Origin: a virus
Lineage: Duplodnaviria; Heunggongvirae; Uroviricota; Caudoviricetes
Direction: 5' to 3' (one strand)
Length of the DNA stretch: 12,343 nt
IMG/VR virus record: IMGVR_UViG_2563366949_000005
A program made the position numbers and the translations under genes. Below, in pieces: positions 3,399 to 12,343 of this stretch. Numbering within the stretch: the stretch's first letter is position 1; every line of letters begins with the position of its first letter. The notes under the pieces were generated by a model. The model was not told the origin of the DNA, made no database searches, and saw only the letters and a list, made by a program, of their open reading frames with translations.

Positions 3399-6300
3399 AT
3401 GGGTAAAGGCAGCAGTAAGGGGCATACCCCGCGCGAAGCGAAGGACAACCTGAAGTCCACGCAGCTGCTGAGTGTGATCGATGCCATCAGTGAAGGGCCG
3501 ATTGAAGGTCCGGTGGATGGATTAAAAAGCGTGCTGCTGAACAGTACGCCGGTGCTGGACAGTGAGGGGAATACCAATATATCCGGCGTCACGGTGGTGT
3601 TCCGGGCAGGTGAGCAGGAGCAGACACCGCCGGAGGGGTTTGAATCCTCCGGCTCCGAGACGGTGCTGGGTACGGAAGTGAAATATGACACGCCGATCAC
3701 CCGGACCATCACGTCGGCAAACATCGACCGTCTGCGCTTTACCTTCGGTGTGCAGGCACTGGTGGAAACCACTTCAAAGGGGGACCGGAATCCGTCGGAA
3801 GTCCGCCTGCTGGTTCAGATACAGCGTAACGGTGGCTGGGTGACGGAAAAAGACATCACCATTAAGGGCAAAACCACCTCGCAGTATCTGGCCTCGGTGG
3901 TGGTGGATAACCTGCCTCCGCGCCCGTTCAATATCCGGATGCGCAGGATGACACCGGACAGCACTACAGACCAGCTGCAGAACAAAACGCTCTGGTCGTC
4001 ATACACCGAAATCATCGATGTGAAACAGTGCTACCCGAACACGGCACTGGTCGGCGTACAGGTGGACTCGGAGCAGTTCGGCAGCCAGCAGGTGAGCCGT
4101 AATTATCATCTTCGCGGGCGCATTCTGCAGGTTCCGTCGAACTATAACCCGCAGACGCGACAATACAGCGGTATCTGGGACGGAACGTTTAAGCCGGCAT
4201 ACAGCAACAACATGGCCTGGTGTCTGTGGGATATGCTGACCCACCCGCGCTACGGCATGGGGAAACGTCTTGATGCGGCGGATGTGGACAAATGGGCGCT
4301 GTATGTCATCGGCCAGAATTGCGACCAGTCGGTGCCGGACGGCTTTGGCGGCACGGAGCCGCGCATCACCTGTAACGCTTACCTGACCACACAACGTAAG
4401 GCGTGGGATGTGCTCAGTGATTTCTGCTCGGCGATGCGCTGTATGCCGGTATGGAACGGGCAGACGCTGACGTTCGTGCAGGACCGACCGTCGGATAAGG
4501 TGTGGACCTATAACCGCAGTAATGTGGTGATGCCGGATGATGGCGCGCCGTTCCGCTACAGCTTCAGCGCCCTGAAGGACCGCCATAATGCCGTTGAGGT
4601 GAACTGGATTGACCCGAATAACGGCTGGGAAACGGCAACAGAGCTTGTGGAGGACACGCAGGCCATTGCCCGTTACGGTCGTAACGTCACGAAGATGGAT
4701 GCCTTTGGCTGTACCAGCCGGGGGCAGGCACACCGCGCCGGGCTGTGGCTGATTAAAACGGAACTGCTGGAAACGCAGACCGTGGACTTCAGCGTGGGTG
4801 CAGAAGGGCTTCGCCATGTCCCGGGTGATGTCATTGAAATCTGTGATGATGACTATGCGGGCATCAGCATCGGCGGGCGCGTGCTGGCGGTGAACAGCCA
4901 GACGCGGACACTGACGCTCGACCGTGAAATCATGCTGCCATCCTCCGGTACCACGCTGATAAGCCTGGTTGACGGTCAGGGTAATCCGGTCAGCGTGGAG
5001 GTCCAGTCCGTCACCGACGGCGTGAAGGTGAAAGTGAGCCGTGTTCCTGACGGCGTTGCCGGATACAGCGTGTGGGGGCTGAAGTTGCCGACGTTGCGCC
5101 AGCGCCTGTTCCGCTGCGTGAGTATCCGTGAGAACGACGACGGCACGTATGCCATCACCGCCGTGCAGCATGTACCCGAAAAAGAAGCCATCGTGGATAA
5201 CGGGGCGCACTTTGACGGCGACCTGAGCAGCACGGTGAATGGCGTCACGCCGCCCGCGGTGCAGCACCTGACTGCCGAAGTCACCGCAGACAGCGGGGAA
5301 TATCAGGTGCTGGCGCGCTGGGACACGCCGAAGGTGGTGAAGGGGGGGAGCTTTATGCTTCGCCTGACCGTGGCAGCGGATGACGGCAGTGAGCGGCTGG
5401 TCAGCACGGCCAGGACGACGGAAACCACATACCGCTTCAGGCAACTGGCGCTGGGGAACTACAAGCTGACAGTCCGGGCGGTAAATGCGTGGGGGCAGCA
5501 GGGGGATCCGGCGTCAGTATCGTTCCGGATTGCCGCACCGGCAGCGCCATTGCGGATTGAGCTGACGCCGGGCTATTTTCAGATAACCGCCACGCCGCAT
5601 CTTGCCGTTTATGACCCGACGGTACAGTTTGAGTTCTGGTTCTCGGAAAAGCGGATTACCGATATCAGGCAGGTTGAAACCACAGCCCGCTATCTTGGTA
5701 CGGCGCTGTACTGGATAGCCGCCAGTATCAATATCAAACCGGGCCATGATTATTACTTTTATATCCGCAGTGTGAACACCGTTGGCAAATCGGCATTCGT
5801 GGAGGGCGTCGGTCGGGCGAGCGATGATGCGGAAGGTTACCTGGATTTTTTCAAAGGCAAGATAACCGAATCCCATCTCGGTAAAGAGCTGCTGGAAAAA
5901 GTTGATTTGACGGAGGATAACGCCAGCAGACTGGATGAGTTTTCGAAAGAGTGGAAGGACGCTAACGATAAATGGAATGCCATGTGGGGCGTCAAAATTG
6001 AGCAGACCAAAGACGGCAAACATTATGTCGCGGGTATTGGCCTCAGCATGGAGGACACGGAGGAAGGCAAGCTGAGCCAGTTTCTGGTTGCCGCTAACCG
6101 TATCGCGTTTATTGACCCGGCAAACGGGAATGAAACGCCGATGTTTGTGGCGCAGGGCAACCAGATATTCATGAACGACGTGTTCCTGAAGCGCCTGACA
6201 GCCCCCACCATTACCAGCGGTGGCAGTCCTCCGGTATTTTCCCTGACATCAGACGGAAAGCTGACCGCTAAAAATGCGGATATCAGTGGTAGTGTGAATG

Positions 6301-6812
6301 CGAACTCCGGGACGCTCAATAATGTCACGGTAAATGAAAACTGTACGATTAAGGGCATGCTGGAGGCGAACCAGGTCAGAGGTGACTTCGTTAAAACTGT
6401 ATCCAAATCATTCCCGAAAAAGGCTGGTACGTGGGGTAACACGGAAACACCAAACGGGACGGTTACAGTCACCATTTACGATGATCATAACTTTGACCGC
6501 CAAATCATTATTCCGCCCATTATTTTTAACGGTGTGGCGTATGACGATCCGGGGAGCGGTAATAACCCGGGAGGTACGCGATACACGGGTTATGGTTTTG
6601 AAGTTCGCAAAAATGGCGTATTAATCGCATCCAGAGAAACTAAAGGAGCCATTCCCGGTAGTTACAGTGCGGTTATTGATATGCCGAGTGGTGGTGGTAA
6701 CGTCACTCTGGAGTTTAAGATTTTCCAGAAAGGCAATCAGGGCGCAGGTAACATCACAGACTGTACGGTGATTGTGACCAAAAAAGCTGCTTCCGGTATC
6801 AGTATCCGTTGA
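3399..6812 (+). CDS. J: Host specificity / tip attachment protein J (central tail fibre), 1137 aa
   Basis: Very long ORF with a GAGGAA Shine-Dalgarno 5-6 nt upstream of ATG 3399. Size is close to lambda gpJ (about 1132 aa) and it follows I in canonical order. The large antisense ORF 3999..5444 is a GC-content artefact. Confidence 0.95.
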
Positions 6813-6832
6813 AATATTTATAACCCCAATAC

Positions 6833-6860
6833 GGGTGCCAGAAATGGCGCCTTTTTTATT
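6833..6860 (+). terminator. Putative rho-independent terminator downstream of J
   Basis: A 6-bp stem GGTGCC / GGCGCC (one G-U pair) with loop AGAAAT is followed by TTTTTTATTT. It sits between the J stop (6812) and the stf ribosome-binding site. Confidence 0.45.
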
Positions 6861-6872
6861 TGTGGAGTGAGT

Positions 6873-9245
6873 ATGGCAGTACAGATTTCAGGTGTGCTGA
6901 AAGACGGCACAGGAAAACCGGTACAGAACTGCACAATCCAGCTGAAAGCAAAACGTAACAGTACCACGGTACTGGTGAACACGGTGGCCTCTGAAAATCC
7001 GGATGAAGCCGGGCGTTACAGCATGGATGTTGAGTATGGCCAGTACAGCGTTATCCTGCTTGTTGAAGGTTTTCCGCCTTCACATGCCGGAACCATTACC
7101 GTCTATGAAGGTTCCAGACCAGGTACGCTGAATGATTTTCTCGGTGCCATGACGGAAGATGATGTCATGCCGGAGGCATTGCGTCGTTTTGAGGAAATGG
7201 TGGAAGAAGCGGCACGCAACGCTGAAGCCGCCTCTCAGAGCGCAGCGGCGGCAAAGAAATCCGAAACTGCAGCGGCATCATCGAAGAACGCGGCGAAAAC
7301 CTCAGAAACGAATGCAGCTAACAGCGCACAGGCGGCAGCGGCCTCGCAGACTGCATCGGCAAACTCCGCAACAGCAGCTAAAAAATCAGAAACCAACGCG
7401 AAAAATAGCGAGACAGCCGCAAAGACGAGCGAAACCAACGCAAAGTCCAGCCAGACGGCAGCGAAGACCAGCGAAACGAATGCTAAAGCCAGTGAAACTG
7501 CAGCAAAAAACAGCCAGGTTGCAGCAGCCCAAAGCGAGAGCGCGGCAGCCGGTTCTGCGACTTCAGCAGCTGGATCAGCAACTGCTGCGGCTAACAGCCA
7601 GAAAGCTGCGAAGACGAGTGAAACTAACGCAAAGTCCAGCCAGACGGCAGCGAAGACCAGCGAAACGAATGCCAAAGCCAGTGAAACTGCGGCGAAAAGC
7701 AGTCAGGATGCAGCGGCCCAAAGCGAGAGTGCCGCAGCCAGTTCTGCAAGCGCGGCGGCTGCTTCTGCTACTGCATCAGCTAACAGTCAAAAAGCAGCAA
7801 AAACCAGTGAAACCAACGCAAAGGTGAGCGAAACAGCGGCTGCGAACTCAGCGAAAGCATCGGCAGCAAGCCAGACGGCAGCTAAAGCAAGCGAAGATGC
7901 AGCCAGAGAGTACGCAAGCCAGGCTGCGGAGCCGTATAAATATGTCTTACAGCCGCTGCCTGATGTGTGGATACCATTTAACGATTCGCTGGATATGATT
8001 ACGGGCTTTTCGCCATCATATAAAAAAATTGTTATTGGTGACGATGAAATAACGATGCCTGGCGACAAGATTGTTAAGTTTAAACGTGCATCGAAAGCAA
8101 CCTATATTAACAAATCTGGTGTGCTGACAGAGGCTGCCATTGACGAGCCACGATTTGAACGTGATGGCCTGCTTATTGAGGGGCAAAGAACAAACTACAT
8201 GCTCAATTCGGAAAGCCCTGCCAGTTGGGGGCGATCGTCAAATATGGATGTGCCCGAAACAGGGACGGATAATTTTGGTTTTACCTATGGAAAGTTTGTC
8301 TGCAACGATTCTCTGATTGGGCAAACCTCAGCCATTAATATGGCATCAATTGCTGCAACAAAGTCAGTTGATGTCTCAGGCGATAATAAACACGTGACAA
8401 CCTCATGTCGTTTTAAAACAGAACTGCAGGTAAGGTTGCGTATCCGGTTTGATAAATATGACGGTAGCGCAACAACTTTTCTTGGTGATGCGTATATTGA
8501 TACACAAACGCTTGAAATTAATATGACAGGCGGTGCTGCCTCAAGAATTACAGCGAGAGTCAGAAAGGACGAAGCTACCGGATGGATTTTTGCAGAGGCA
8601 ACAATTCAGGCAATTGATGGGGAGTTAAAAATAGGCTCTCAGATACAGTATTCTCCTAAGCAGAGCGGGGCAACCGTATCTGGTGACTATATTTATCTGG
8701 CCACCCCACAAGTAGAAGATGGGCCTTGTGTATCATCTTTTATTATATCAGGAGCGACGGCGGCGACCCGCGCAAGCGATATAGTTACAGTTCCAATTAA
8801 GAATAATCTTTATAATCTTCCTTTTACGGTTCTTTGTGAGGTACATAAGAACTGGTATAAAACGCCAAATGCAGCGCCACGTGTTTTTGATACCGGCGGT
8901 CATCAAACCGGAGCGGCTATTATTCTTGGCTTCGGTCGTTCAACAGATTACGACGGATTTCCTTATTGCGATATTGGAGGAGCTAACAGACGGGTAAACG
9001 AAAACGCATCGCTTGAAAAAATGGTTATGGGGATGCGTGTAAAGTCAGAGCAGTCTACGTGCTCAGTAAGTAACGGGCATATATCCAGCGAAACAAAAAC
9101 CACATGGTCCTGTATTCAGAACACCGCAATTATCCGTATTGGAGGCCAGACTACAGCCGGGTTACGTCATTTATTTGGTCATGTCAGGAATTTCAGAATA
9201 TGGCACAAGGCATTGACTGATGCTCAGGTGGGGGAGTCAATCTAA
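6873..9245 (+). CDS. stf: Side tail fibre protein (Stf-like): conserved N-terminal anchor, Ala/Ser/Thr-rich repeat shaft, divergent AT-rich C-terminal domain
   Basis: N-terminus MAVQISGVLKDGTGKPVQNCTIQLKA...GFPPSHAGTITVYEGS matches the conserved N-terminal domain of lambdoid Stf proteins as I recall it. The ORF track starts at GTG 6867, but ATG 6873 with GGAG 5 nt upstream is the more likely start. The central part has 63-aa tandem repeats (AAKTSETNAKSSQTAAK...). The C-terminal part, about 440 aa, is encoded by visibly AT-richer DNA. Confidence 0.85.
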   Translation: MAVQISGVLKDGTGKPVQNCTIQLKAKRNSTTVLVNTVASENPDEAGRYSMDVEYGQYSVILLVEGFPPSHAGTITVYEGSRPGTLNDFLGAMTEDDVMPEALRRFEEMVEEAARNAEAASQSAAAAKKSETAAASSKNAAKTSETNAANSAQAAAASQTASANSATAAKKSETNAKNSETAAKTSETNAKSSQTAAKTSETNAKASETAAKNSQVAAAQSESAAAGSATSAAGSATAAANSQKAAKTSETNAKSSQTAAKTSETNAKASETAAKSSQDAAAQSESAAASSASAAAASATASANSQKAAKTSETNAKVSETAAANSAKASAASQTAAKASEDAAREYASQAAEPYKYVLQPLPDVWIPFNDSLDMITGFSPSYKKIVIGDDEITMPGDKIVKFKRASKATYINKSGVLTEAAIDEPRFERDGLLIEGQRTNYMLNSESPASWGRSSNMDVPETGTDNFGFTYGKFVCNDSLIGQTSAINMASIAATKSVDVSGDNKHVTTSCRFKTELQVRLRIRFDKYDGSATTFLGDAYIDTQTLEINMTGGAASRITARVRKDEATGWIFAEATIQAIDGELKIGSQIQYSPKQSGATVSGDYIYLATPQVEDGPCVSSFIISGATAATRASDIVTVPIKNNLYNLPFTVLCEVHKNWYKTPNAAPRVFDTGGHQTGAAIILGFGRSTDYDGFPYCDIGGANRRVNENASLEKMVMGMRVKSEQSTCSVSNGHISSETKTTWSCIQNTAIIRIGGQTTAGLRHLFGHVRNFRIWHKALTDAQVGESI
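7422..7800 (+). repeat. Tandem direct repeat of about 189 bp (two near-identical copies, partial third) inside stf
   Basis: Copy 1 begins aagacgagcgaaaccaacgcaaagtccagccagacggcagcgaagaccagcgaaacgaatgc at about 7422. Copy 2 begins aagacgagtgaaactaacgcaaagtccagccagacggcagcgaagaccagcgaaacgaatgc at about 7611. The period is 189 bp (63 codons) and the protein repeats are TNAKSSQTAAKTSETNAKASETAAK. Confidence 0.75.
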
Positions 9246-9526
9246 TGAAAGATTTAACACTCAAATTTGCCGACAGGGCCGACTTTTCGGCCTTTATGGA
9301 GAGTATTGGCTATTATGATGACGAGTCGATGCAGGATGATATTCTTATTGACGTGATAGGTAACGCGTACAAAGAAACCGGAGAACTGACTGAAGATGGC
9401 GAACCGGTATGTGTTAAGGAAGACGGATATTTTGTAAACGTGCGCATCATTAATGATTCGCAAATATCGTCATTATTCGATGAATACGTGGTTGCTGTTG
9501 AGCATCAACTTCGTGGCTGGATGTGA
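9245..9526 (+). CDS. Hypothetical small acidic protein (93 aa), translationally coupled to stf
   Basis: ATG at 9245 overlaps the stf stop (TAATG). The protein is strongly acidic (many D/E, few K/R). It shares low GC with the stf 3' half and the downstream gene. It does not resemble lambda Tfa as far as I can judge. Confidence 0.6.
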   Translation: MKDLTLKFADRADFSAFMESIGYYDDESMQDDILIDVIGNAYKETGELTEDGEPVCVKEDGYFVNVRIINDSQISSLFDEYVVAVEHQLRGWM

Positions 9527-9535
9527 GGAAGAAAA

Positions 9536-10576
9536 ATGGCTACATCGACAGTAATTCCTGATGACATCAAAACGCTAAAATCCGACGTTAGCAAATTAAA
9601 AAACGATCAAGGAAGCTACGCAACAAAATTATATGTTGACAGCAAAGATGAAATCGTTGGTGACTGGTCTGCTTCATGGTATCAGCAGGTATTGCCAACT
9701 AGCGGAGCTATATTTGGGAGAAAACTCCGCTCAACTCACAGGACGGCAGGTGTTGAGGATGCGTATTGCGAGCTATACCTCAAAAAATGGATAGACAGCC
9801 CAGGTAACGCAATGGCGCGCCTTAACCTGAACGATAACGGGACAAACATTTGCTGGGACTTTACCAACCTTTATGGCGGTACGATGATTTTTCCCGGTGA
9901 CAGCGGATACCTCAAAATGGGTAACTGCCTTATGTCATACAGCAAGCGTGGAAGTAACGCGCTTATTAAATTTGATTACACCGACACATTACAGATCAAA
10001 TATGCCAATCATGGGTCAACCATGACATTAAACACACAGGGAACCGCTTATGCTGGTGTTACTGCTCAATTGTGGGGCAACTCCAGCCGTCCTGTTGTTT
10101 ATGAAGTCGGTGTTGATGGTGGCGCTTATATGTTCTATGCGCAGAAAAATACCGATAACACCTATATGTTAAGCGTTAATGGTGCATGTCATGCCACCGC
10201 ATTTAACCAGCATTCCGACCGGGATCTGAAAGACAACATTCAGGTGATCGATAATGCAACCGACCGCATCCGTAAAATGAACGGCTACACATACACGCTT
10301 AAAGAAAACGGTATGCCCTATGCTGGTGTCATTGCACAGGAAGCTCTGGAAGCAATCCCAGAAGTTGTAGGTTCCGCAATGAAATATCAGGACGGTGCGA
10401 GCGGATCGGAAGGTGAAGAAGGTGAACGTTATTACACAGTAGATTATTCTGGTGTTACTGGCTTGCTTGTTCAGGTAGCCAGAGAGTCAGACGACAGAAT
10501 AACAGCACTGGAAGAAGAAAACGCAGAATTAAGACAAAGATTATCTGCAATTGATGCGGCGCTTGCGTCTAAATAA
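9536..10576 (+). CDS. Tail fibre / receptor-binding tip protein with C-terminal peptidase-S74 intramolecular chaperone (autoproteolytic) domain, 346 aa
   Basis: GAGGAAG Shine-Dalgarno 5 nt upstream of ATG 9536, 9 nt after the orf93 stop. The C-terminal ~120 aa carry the S74/endosialidase-chaperone signature: HSDRDLKDNI ... GYTYTLKENG ... YAGVIAQEALEAIPEVV ... YTVDYSGVTGLLVQVARE, then a heptad-like tail (ITALEEENAELRQRLSAIDAALASK). A terminator-like hairpin follows the stop. Confidence 0.75.
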   Translation: MATSTVIPDDIKTLKSDVSKLKNDQGSYATKLYVDSKDEIVGDWSASWYQQVLPTSGAIFGRKLRSTHRTAGVEDAYCELYLKKWIDSPGNAMARLNLNDNGTNICWDFTNLYGGTMIFPGDSGYLKMGNCLMSYSKRGSNALIKFDYTDTLQIKYANHGSTMTLNTQGTAYAGVTAQLWGNSSRPVVYEVGVDGGAYMFYAQKNTDNTYMLSVNGACHATAFNQHSDRDLKDNIQVIDNATDRIRKMNGYTYTLKENGMPYAGVIAQEALEAIPEVVGSAMKYQDGASGSEGEEGERYYTVDYSGVTGLLVQVARESDDRITALEEENAELRQRLSAIDAALASK

Positions 10577-10582
10577 TATTAA

Positions 10583-10605
10583 GGGGCCGAGCGCCCCGTT
10601 TTATT
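10583..10605 (+). terminator. Putative rho-independent terminator after the 346-aa fibre gene
   Basis: A GC-rich 5-bp stem GGGGC / GCCCC with loop CGAGC is followed by GTTTTATT, 7 nt after the stop at 10576. Confidence 0.5.
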
Positions 10606-10618
10606 GGGTAGGATGAAA

Positions 10619-10912
10619 ATGGATATAACACCTTTCCTTCATGCGCTTTGTGCTGTGGCTGCGCAGCTACTGATTGGTCTTTTTACCGGGAACTGGGCTT
10701 ACGGGGCGATAGCCGGTTGTACGTTCTTCATTGCGCGTGAACACACCCAGGCAGAATATCGCTGGATCGAAATGTTCGGGCATGGCAAGCGAATGAATAT
10801 GCCGTGGTGGGGCGGTTTTGATACACGTGCATGGGATGTGGCAAGCCTGATGGATTTTGCTGTGCCGGTGGTGGCGTGTCTGCTGGTCTGGCTGTTGGTT
10901 AATCGTGGGTGA
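10619..10912 (+). CDS. Small predicted integral membrane protein (about 97 aa, 2-3 hydrophobic segments), function unknown
   Basis: The ORF track begins at TTG 10604. In-frame ATGs at 10613 and 10619 are more plausible, with AGGA at 10610-10613. Hydrophobic stretches are FLHALCAVAAQLLIGLF, AYGAIAGCTFFIA and FAVPVVACLLVWLLV. The exact start is uncertain. Confidence 0.55.
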   Translation: MDITPFLHALCAVAAQLLIGLFTGNWAYGAIAGCTFFIAREHTQAEYRWIEMFGHGKRMNMPWWGGFDTRAWDVASLMDFAVPVVACLLVWLLVNRG

Positions 10913-11139
10913 AAAAAGGTGAGCTGTATATGCAACGGAGGAAGAAAACTCGTTGATGGAAGCCTGGAAGAAGTATCGGGTGTTGCTGAACCGTGTTGAT
11001 ACATCAACTGCACAGGATATTGAATGGCCAGCACTGCCGTAGGGTAAAACATATAAATTCTATAATTAGATGTATCTTTCCATTTACGGCAAGGAAGGGG
11101 GCTTGGAAGACGTAAAGCATCTCACACCAAGATTATTTT

Positions 11140-11730
11140 TTATATGTCAGGTGTCTGAAGTTTTGCTTTGGCTCTTAAAATGGTTTGCCGCGAGGTTTTG
11201 AATTCCCGGGCAATGGCACTTATACTTACACCTGACTTAATTCGTTCGAATACCACCTGTTTCTGTTCTTCATTTAACACAGGTGGTCGACCAAAACGTT
11301 TCCCTGCGCCCCGGGCTCTTACTATCCCGGAATGAGTGCGTTCAAGTAAAAGGTCTCGTTCAAATTCAGCGACTGCTGAAATTACTTGCATCATCATTTT
11401 TCCTGTTGGACTGGTCAGGTCAATGCCCCCCAATGCTAAGCAATGCACTCTGATACCTGTTTCGGTCAGTTGTTCCACTGTTTTCCTGATATCCATTGCA
11501 TTACAACCAAGGCGATCCAGTTTTGTCACAATCAATTGATCACCACATTTCAGGCGAGCAAGCAACCGGTTAAAACCAGGACGCTCACTGGTTGCTGCTG
11601 AGCCGCTAATGTGTTCTTCGATTATTTGCTGAGGTTTGATTTTAAAACCTGCACTTTCGATTTCCCGGCGTTGATTTTCGGTGGTCTGATCCAGCGTTGA
11701 TATCCGACAGTAAGCAAAAATTCGAGACAT
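11140..11730 (-). CDS. Small serine recombinase (resolvase/invertase family), 196 aa
   Basis: The N-terminus [15 protein letters not shown] contains the catalytic Ser/Arg motif of serine recombinases. A KLDRLGC motif and a C-terminal helix-turn-helix ([21 protein letters not shown]) are present. The start is an ATG (complement of CAT at 11728-11730) and the stop is TAA at 11140-11142. Confidence 0.9.
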
Positions 11731-12109: not shown

Positions 12110-12343
12110 TTACACTTTACCATTTAAATTTTGGTTGTCTTTAAGAACTGATATCGCTGTTTGTAATAATTCTTTGTTATCCAGCCATGACTTTTTCTTT
12201 ATGTTTCCTTCAATGTAATCAAGCAATGTTCTGGTATTGATAGGTCTTCCCTGTTTTGCTACTTCCACGACAGCATCTCCCAGGATAATTCTGACTTCAG
12301 GAAGCTGCGCAGGGAACCACTTTAGGGTGTCTTTTGATTTCAT
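12110..12343 (-). CDS. Hypothetical small protein (at least 77 aa); its ATG coincides with the window edge, so the true 5' end may lie outside
   Basis: Open minus-strand frame from 12343 to the TAA at 12110-12112, in AT-rich DNA. No recognisable motif. Its extent cannot be decided from this window. Confidence 0.45.
   Translation of the reverse strand: MKSKDTLKWFPAQLPEVRIILGDAVVEVAKQGRPINTRTLLDYIEGNIKKKSWLDNKELLQTAISVLKDNQNLNGKV

Follow-up and report, generated by a model that had tools for sequence, protein, structure and literature searches.

One of the closest described counterparts of the fibre considered here is the side tail fibre (Stf) of phage lambda (orf-401/orf-314), an accessory adsorption fibre encoded behind J. 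We analysed a 12,343-nucleotide stretch of viral DNA (Caudoviricetes; IMG/VR record IMGVR_UViG_2563366949_000005), referred to in full as the window, in which the gene stf encodes a fibre protein of the same position and presumed role. The protein resembles lambda Stf in its N-terminal 328 residues, and both genes have a Pin-type invertase gene as a neighbour, but in the window the whole distal part and Tfa have been replaced, with 36 codons of tfa left. A second relative is Rcc01080 (GhsB; family NF048003), the head spike fibre of the Rhodobacter capsulatus gene transfer agent (RcGTA). This protein binds capsule polysaccharide and is located at the tip of a flexible appendage (PMC7296036, PMC10218006). 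It is homologous to one domain of the window protein and otherwise unlike Stf, being a 325-residue protein of low identity, present as a single subunit on the capsid vertex and lacking the Stf anchor, the coiled-coil shaft and the second distal domain. Finally, the lateral fibres of phages rolling, tinuso, VogelGryff, EdH4 and NBEco002 end in a C-terminal module 35–88% identical to that of the window, followed by the same small gene, whereas the virion-attachment domains and shafts of Drexlerviridae, Dhillonvirus, T5-like, rV5-like and JenP-like fibres differ from those of the window.

Set against these systems, the window fibre can with high confidence be described as a mosaic, in which a lambda-type anchor and shaft carry a distal module of two concanavalin A-like (ConA-like) domains. 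The combined explanation, in which this architecture presents a glycan-binding module, is assigned a probability of roughly 0.7.

A lambda-type scaffold carrying an exchanged distal module

As a preliminary description of this DNA had proposed, the first ~350 residues of the fibre comprise a conserved anchor, recognised as the N-terminal prophage tail fibre domain PF08400 at residues 1–131, and an Ala/Ser/Thr-rich repeat shaft (residues 132–349). Residues 1–328 were 58.8% identical to lambda orf-401 (E = 1.5e-74), and no similarity to residues 352–790 was found in lambda stf, orf-314 or tfa. The shaft (Ala 36%, Ser 20%, Thr 12%) displayed a strict seven-residue period, with a self-identity of 0.52 at lags of 7, 14, 21 and 28 residues versus ~0.13 elsewhere, and tandem repeats of 21, 42 and 189 nucleotides were detected at 7389–7823 (TRF). 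The shaft presumably forms a trimeric coiled coil, and its length differs between alleles, which encode proteins of 684–793 residues. The gene lies directly downstream of J in a lambdoid tail operon; neither the canonical distal region (lambda orf-314 or T4 gp37-like) nor an intact downstream tfa gene accompanies it. The fibre is thus a Stf by anchor and position, yet falls outside the lambda type because its distal domain and Tfa differ.

Database proteins with a near-identical distal part carry at least four unrelated N-terminal scaffolds: the lambda Stf type, a P2 type (PF12571/PF03406), a T1/Dhillon type beginning 'MAIYRQGQ...' and a type beginning 'MAVTTKIIVQQ...'. Up to residue ~350 these proteins shared no more than 50% identity with the window protein, whereas beyond residue ~361 they shared 90% or more. 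At the DNA level, the matches of other alleles that share only the module start at 7950–7959, placing the junction between scaffold and module near nucleotide 7950, and the coordinate of 7920 proposed earlier was therefore right to within about 30 nucleotides. The proposal that the distal part had been grafted onto a lambdoid Stf likewise agrees with the lack of colinearity with the distal part of lambda Stf and with the identical module on P2-type, T1/Dhillon-type and other scaffolds. The distal 441 residues are 100% identical to those of Stf of Escherichia phage PhiR63_1, and a match to PHROG 1419 spans the whole protein. RefSeq names the distal-identical proteins either 'prophage tail fiber N-terminal domain-containing protein' or 'phage head spike fiber domain-containing protein'.

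Two ConA-like domains at the fibre tip

The tip consists of two ConA-like domains and not one, the first of which (D1) is the better-defined homologue. NCBIfam NF048003 (GTA_spike_fiber) matched residues 434–634 with 50.5 bits against a cut-off of 36, placing the protein in this family, and a single-sequence search of the PDB with the distal part retrieved Rcc01080 (E = 1e-7), while no Pfam family matched the distal part above threshold. A family profile, built from 24 trimmed and diverse representatives that were 25–34% identical to the window protein, matched Rcc01080 (PDB 6tb9) at E = 2.5e-40 over profile positions 48–278, a homology of about 230 residues. The same profile reached the phage fibre and baseplate proteins gp17 (9occ), E217 gp45 (8env) and Pa193 gp46 (9b45) at about 1e-16. 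In D1, a hypervariable core lies between conserved frame strands at either end, and the domain shares with Rcc01080 the frame motifs FxRAS.ATY, EPRFE..GLLIEG.TN and Q.E....SS.I......TRA.D.

The second domain (D2) has the fold and the terminal-strand motif common to Laminin_G_3 (PF13385), the pentraxins and carbohydrate-binding module family 40 (CBM40). Profile positions 287–427 matched the LamG-like S-layer protein 4qvs (3e-5) and 4dqa (6.5e-3), followed by C-reactive protein (0.02) and a trans-sialidase lectin domain (0.47). Most relatives pass as Laminin_G_3, which was matched by 23 of the 24 family members (best 6.5e-12), and the domain has the jelly-roll fold. In the window protein the match is confined to the last third of the profile (distal residues 385–437, profile positions 98–150 of 151). 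It coincides with the C-terminal strand GHVRNFRIWHKALTDAQ, which the preliminary description had flagged as LamG-like and which is indeed the last strand of Laminin_G_3.

Structure prediction and fold comparison, which together with the profile searches had been suggested as a check, also returned ConA-like folds. The lack of a LamG/ConA-like fold, named beforehand as a ground for rejection, thus did not apply, and all checks suggested in the preliminary description favoured its reading. With the 24 diverse representatives as input, AlphaFold modelled D1 with predicted local distance difference test scores (pLDDT) of mostly 67–94; a model based on 25 close relatives (77–100% identical) had a mean pLDDT of 49.8, with only the D1 core confident, and was not used. 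Foldseek supported ConA-like folds, the closest fold matches being carbohydrate-binding modules, with the laminin LG4-5 domain pair also among the matches. With template modelling scores of 0.87–0.90, the two-domain module superposed on BFVD tail fibre models from phages rolling, EdH4 and NBEco002, and it also superposed on many proteins of uncultured phages in BFVD annotated as ConA-like lectin/glucanase superfamily.

Conservation across the family is concentrated in four places: in the neck, with its motif PLPDVWxPxxDSL; in the opening strands of D1, FxRAS.ATY...EPRFE..GLLIEGQ.TN; in its closing strands, Q.E....SS.I.....TRA.D; and in the terminal strand of D2. The D1 core and much of D2 are variable. 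The three sequence strings quoted in the preliminary description (AAEPYKYVLQPLPDVWIPF, GLLIEGQRTNYMLNSE and GHVRNFRIWHKALTDAQV) all lie within the stf open reading frame, but the GLLIEGQ segment, said there to begin the distal part, is found about 83 residues into it.

Exchange of the module and of the D1 core

The distal module is already catalogued and common among coliphages. A search of 1.84 billion cluster representatives returned 2055 relatives at E ≤ 1e-3; among the best 150, the whole module was covered by 121, always at the extreme C-terminus of proteins of 340–1480 residues. Repeating the homologue search with the diverse profile returned nearly all the same E. coli alleles and left the diversity unchanged. 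The module occurs in 219 phage records, which include lambdoid phages, Drexlerviridae, Dhillonvirus, T5-like, rV5-like and JenP-like phages. Positions 7500–8400, which span the junction, were matched in about a third of the complete E. coli genomes (1779 of 5426), and at least 80% of 6867–10600 is carried by 373 genomes of this collection, including LF82 and NRG857c.

Five records with Campylobacter or Listeria phage labels contain the module, up to 88% identical, together with the small partner gene: MG065692 (Campylobacter phage C13), MG065676, MG065654, MG065635 and OR847733 (Listeria phage LM 4-11-1). These host labels look doubtful, since the record sizes are those of T5-like or rV5-like coliphages.

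Exchange also takes place within the module. Among 80 close IMG/VR loci, one allele class was 98–100% identical in the neck and 93–99% in D2 but only 54–55% in D1, and DNA homology stops at 8209 and restarts at 8766. With both flanks 98–100% identical and homology broken at these two points, the D1 core is evidently swapped as a cassette in a constant frame. One locus (L076) had a divergent D2 instead (48% identical). Cassette exchange of this type is the pattern expected of a specificity-determining surface, and the D1 core is the likely determinant of specificity.

A coupled small gene, a second fibre and a tfa remnant

The module gene is followed by a translationally coupled gene for an acidic 93-residue protein (PHROG 1361, function unknown), homologues of which occur in 181 phage records. 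It starts 0–21 nucleotides past the module gene in all 10 records that list both coordinates, and lies directly behind it in 78 of the 80 IMG/VR loci, the other two contigs ending earlier. The protein had no match in Pfam or NCBIfam and belongs to neither of the Tfa families PF02413 and PF16778, and searching the PDB with its sequence gave chance-level matches only. In the BASEL phage VogelGryff the homologue is annotated as 'putative lateral tail fiber chaperone'. The type of the 93-residue protein tracks the neck and the first D1 strands (to about nucleotide 8165), which are not adjacent to it in sequence: in the IMG/VR loci a neck segment 71% identical goes with a partner 43% identical, and a neck at least 98% identical with a partner at least 88% identical. 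It tracks neither D1 (54%, with a partner of 97%) nor the adjacent D2 (48%, with a partner of 90%). This co-variation suggests a functional coupling of the protein with the neck. The protein is a candidate for an assembly factor or accessory factor specific to the module; it may be chaperone-like in action, yet is no Tfa.

The preliminary description had noted that no recognisable Tfa gene follows the fibre. While no intact gene is present, the last 36 codons of one remain downstream, near-identical to the C-terminus of lambda Tfa and annotated by RefSeq as an incomplete pseudogene in related genomes. This remnant, next to the Pin-type invertase gene, is the scar of a canonical stf-distal/tfa cassette displaced by the module. 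With this scar downstream and a conserved coupled gene directly behind it, the module is not obviously chaperone-less. Canonical stf/tfa variable cassettes usually have a Pin-type invertase gene beside them. The intact Pin-type gene of the window appears orphaned, since neither flanking inverted repeats nor crossover sites were detected, and the idea that it serves an invertible segment was rejected: no convincing inverted repeats flank 7900–11100 (three 18-nucleotide pairs of 83–89% identity), and a search with a possibly inexact crossover-site pattern gave no match and is a weak negative.

Between the 93-residue gene and the tfa remnant lies a gene for a second fibre protein, which ends in a Peptidase_S74 domain acting as an intramolecular chaperone. 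The best match found in each of 12 related loci extends over no more than the first ~32 residues of this protein (MATSTVIPxDIxTLKxDVSK...), and in the one locus of these that was read (L031, 5117–5821) a 234-residue protein with a different distal part occupies its place. No comparable second fibre gene was found in loci of the other neck/93-residue type. This pattern suggests a docking function for the N-terminus and possibly a branched fibre. A further extension is speculative and rather doubtful: the 93-residue protein would be an undescribed class of fibre accessory protein which co-evolves with the neck hairpin, replaces Tfa and, in lambdoid prophages with this neck type, helps to mount the S74 fibre via its conserved 32-residue N-terminus, so that the side fibre would be branched and have two specificities, each swappable on its own.

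Proposed function and alternative explanations

We propose that the lambda-type N-terminal domain would plug into the tail tip and the heptad-repeat coiled-coil shaft would project outward, presenting the last ~440 residues as a self-contained receptor-binding module that recombination moves among the lateral fibres of unrelated coliphages. Its parts are the short conserved neck, the D1 sandwich with its cassette-swapped core and the conserved Laminin_G_3-like D2. Each fibre would present three copies of the module, whose binding to a surface polysaccharide (O-antigen or capsule) would be weak but multivalent, so that reversible first adsorption would precede irreversible binding by J, with the D1 core deciding which glycan is recognised. 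The module displaced the lambda-type distal Stf and Tfa, bringing its own coupled 93-residue partner, which probably aids folding or assembly of the neck region. The analysis shows how the domains are arranged, their homologies, where the mosaic boundaries lie, the linkage of the genes and the Tfa scar, while glycan binding and the roles of D1 in specificity and of the 93-residue protein are inferred.

That the module binds polysaccharide is, by analogy, a fairly likely proposition. The only homologue tested for function is Rcc01080 of RcGTA, which binds R. capsulatus capsular polysaccharide (PMC10218006; PMC7296036, citing Westbye 2016), and the closest folds are carbohydrate-binding modules. 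Lateral fibres of phage groups proposed to target O-antigen carry the module, and the D1 core is hypervariable. For T5-like, T1-like and Dhillon lateral fibres, O-antigen has been proposed as the first receptor (PMC8594841), and Dhillonvirus fibre tips have earlier been called carbohydrate-binding domains (PMC12309495). The near-identity of the window to the deposited phage PhiR63_1 was counted as support for a working fibre.

Several points weigh against this proposal. The ConA-like fold also serves protein binding and catalysis. The window protein itself scored 17.1 bits (E = 0.0061) against Laminin_G_3, below the gathering score of 27.6, so its own D2 lies under the family threshold. The co-variation of the 93-residue protein rests on few independent recombination events. 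A link to the O16-recognising BASEL phage JakobBernoulli failed, its lateral fibre having no similarity to the module; nor did the gene downstream of that fibre show similarity to the 93-residue protein. In the literature, no receptor experiment was found for the module in any coliphage. The RcGTA structure resolves the head fibre at residues 2–10 only and thus offers no binding site to map (PMC7296036), and structural roles of the ConA-like fold are known as well, as for Pa193 gp46 (PMC11456595).

An alternative regards D2, and maybe the neck, not as a lectin but as a conserved structural or docking platform, for example for the 93-residue protein or the second fibre, such that the host would be touched by D1 and the second fibre alone in a branched fibre. 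The conservation of D2 beside a variable D1 is consistent with this, as are the lambdoid loci, in which the second fibre gene has a conserved N-terminus of ~32 residues and variable distal parts and is restricted to one neck/93-residue type. Phage DT57C is known to have branched fibres made of LtfA and LtfB (PMC10713586); in its structure LtfA is resolved at the N-terminus only. However, phage rolling, the single locus of its kind that was read, carries the module and the 93-residue gene with no second S74 fibre gene after them, so D2 does not serve the second fibre solely, and a divergent D2 type exists (the 48% identical D2 mentioned above). We consider a platform unlikely as an account of D2.

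Binding to an outer-membrane protein instead of a glycan, with D1 hypervariability tracking porin loops, is quite improbable, although Stf of lambda (Ur-lambda) has been reported to use OmpC (PMC11338833, PMC11990801), and ConA-like LNS/LG domains, which bind proteins, were among the Foldseek matches. D1 hypervariability would fit either type of receptor, but the sole homologue with a tested function binds capsule (PMC10218006), carbohydrate-binding modules top the fold matches, and the module is frequent on T5-like, T1-like and Dhillon lateral fibres, for which O-antigen is the proposed receptor (PMC8594841). An enzymatic module from the ConA-like glucanase superfamily, acting as a glycanase or lyase to degrade O-antigen or capsule, was also considered; it was given low weight and seems very improbable.

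Base composition at the junction

The preliminary description had reported a marked change in composition at about 7920. Guanine-plus-cytosine (GC) content does fall, being 0.56 over the shaft and 0.444 over 7920–9242, but the largest part of this drop, more than half of it, is at codon position 2 (0.69 to 0.46) and reflects amino-acid composition, since the shaft is rich in GCN, TCN and ACN codons. At third codon positions, GC content (GC3) was 0.487 over 349 codons and fell to 0.383 over 441 codons (z = 2.9), and a low GC3 persists over the two genes after stf (0.44 and 0.43). The largest GC3 step of the window is found inside J near nucleotide 5400 and not at the stf junction. The compositional discontinuity is therefore real, yet raw GC overstates it; more generally, a GC drop beside an Ala-rich repeat exaggerates foreignness.

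The remaining alternative, that there was no horizontal graft, that the change merely mirrors shaft amino acids and that this Stf lineage inherited its distal part as an ancestral tip, draws on the codon position 2 effect but is barely credible and received low weight, as GC3 falls by 0.10 as well, scaffolds unrelated to one another carry near-identical modules, with sharp breakpoints in the DNA, and the Tfa scar marks a former cassette.

The surrounding locus

The window covers the tail-tip end of a lambdoid prophage of E. coli, and most of it corresponds to phage PhiR63_1 (Table 1), for which E. coli ECOR13 is the recorded host. No literature on PhiR63_1 or ECOR prophages was found, and neither a lambda STF engineering paper nor a paper on Gifsy-1 Stf concerns this module. 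The stf open reading frame opens at a GTG at 6867, and RefSeq gene models agree with the ATG at 6873.

Table 1. Features of the window and their coordinates
Feature	Position	Strand	Remarks
Part shared with Escherichia phage PhiR63_1	2918–12343		Deposited genome; 99.67% identity, gene order identical
Tape-measure gene end, then M/L/K/I-type tail genes			Upstream of J
J	3399–6812		All gpJ Pfam domains present
stf	6873–9245	+	Mosaic side tail fibre gene, 790 residues
Virion-attachment domain, lambda Stf type	6873–7265	+	Residues 1–131; PF08400, E = 6.9e-68
Ala/Ser/Thr-rich heptad-repeat shaft	7266–7919	+	Residues 132–349
Module left edge and neck	7950–8060	+	PLPDVWxPxxDSL motif plus beta-hairpin
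D1	8061–8759	+	ConA-like beta-sandwich, GTA head-spike-fibre homologue
Exchangeable D1 core cassette	8210–8765	+	Flanked by breaks in DNA homology
D2	8763–9242	+	Laminin_G_3/pentraxin-like jelly-roll; C-terminal end GHVRNFRIWHKALTDAQ
93-residue acidic protein gene	9245–9526	+	Isoelectric point 4.05; start overlaps stf stop (TAATG)
Second fibre protein gene	9536–10576	+	346 residues; C-terminal PF13884 Peptidase_S74, E = 4.8e-14; PHROG 4563
Predicted membrane protein gene	10619–10912	+	97 residues; PHROG 1443, unknown function
tfa remnant	10932–11042	+	Last 36 codons; PF02413 Caudo_TAP positions 95–130 of 131, E = 1.3e-15
Pin-type serine invertase gene	11140–11730	-	Intact; PF00239 and HTH_7; PinQ/PinR-type in PhiR63_1

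J leads directly to stf across 6813–6872 without lom, as in PhiR63_1, and in the closest complete E. coli genomes a 600-nucleotide Ail/Lom gene separates the two. Within J, GC3 changes from 0.74 in the first 2 kb to about 0.58 in the last 1.4 kb, the step lying near nucleotide 5400, and related loci share only parts of the 3' region, at 83–95% identity. Owing to this drop and the partial sharing, the receptor-binding end of J is probably mosaic too. The predicted membrane protein is conserved, and in nearly all related loci its gene comes after the fibre genes, whatever fibre alleles precede it. At 12110–12343, on the minus strand, a partial open reading frame running off the end of the window occupies the position of a ydfK/ynaE-type cold-shock gene in related prophages, and the DNA there is strongly AT-rich (GC 0.33–0.34).

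Implications

No paper was found in the literature that describes the boundaries of the D1 cassette or the co-variation of the 93-residue gene; both refine the picture of a type of mosaic receptor-binding protein that is already known, and neither establishes a new type. Their practical value is modest and lies in clean, sequence-defined boundaries (~7950; 8210–8765) that can be used to engineer lambda-type particles for new host ranges. If the 93-residue partner is coupled to the neck, its gene would probably need to be moved together with the neck type. For the biology of these phages, the window fibre adds one more case of the known modular exchange in phage receptor-binding tips.

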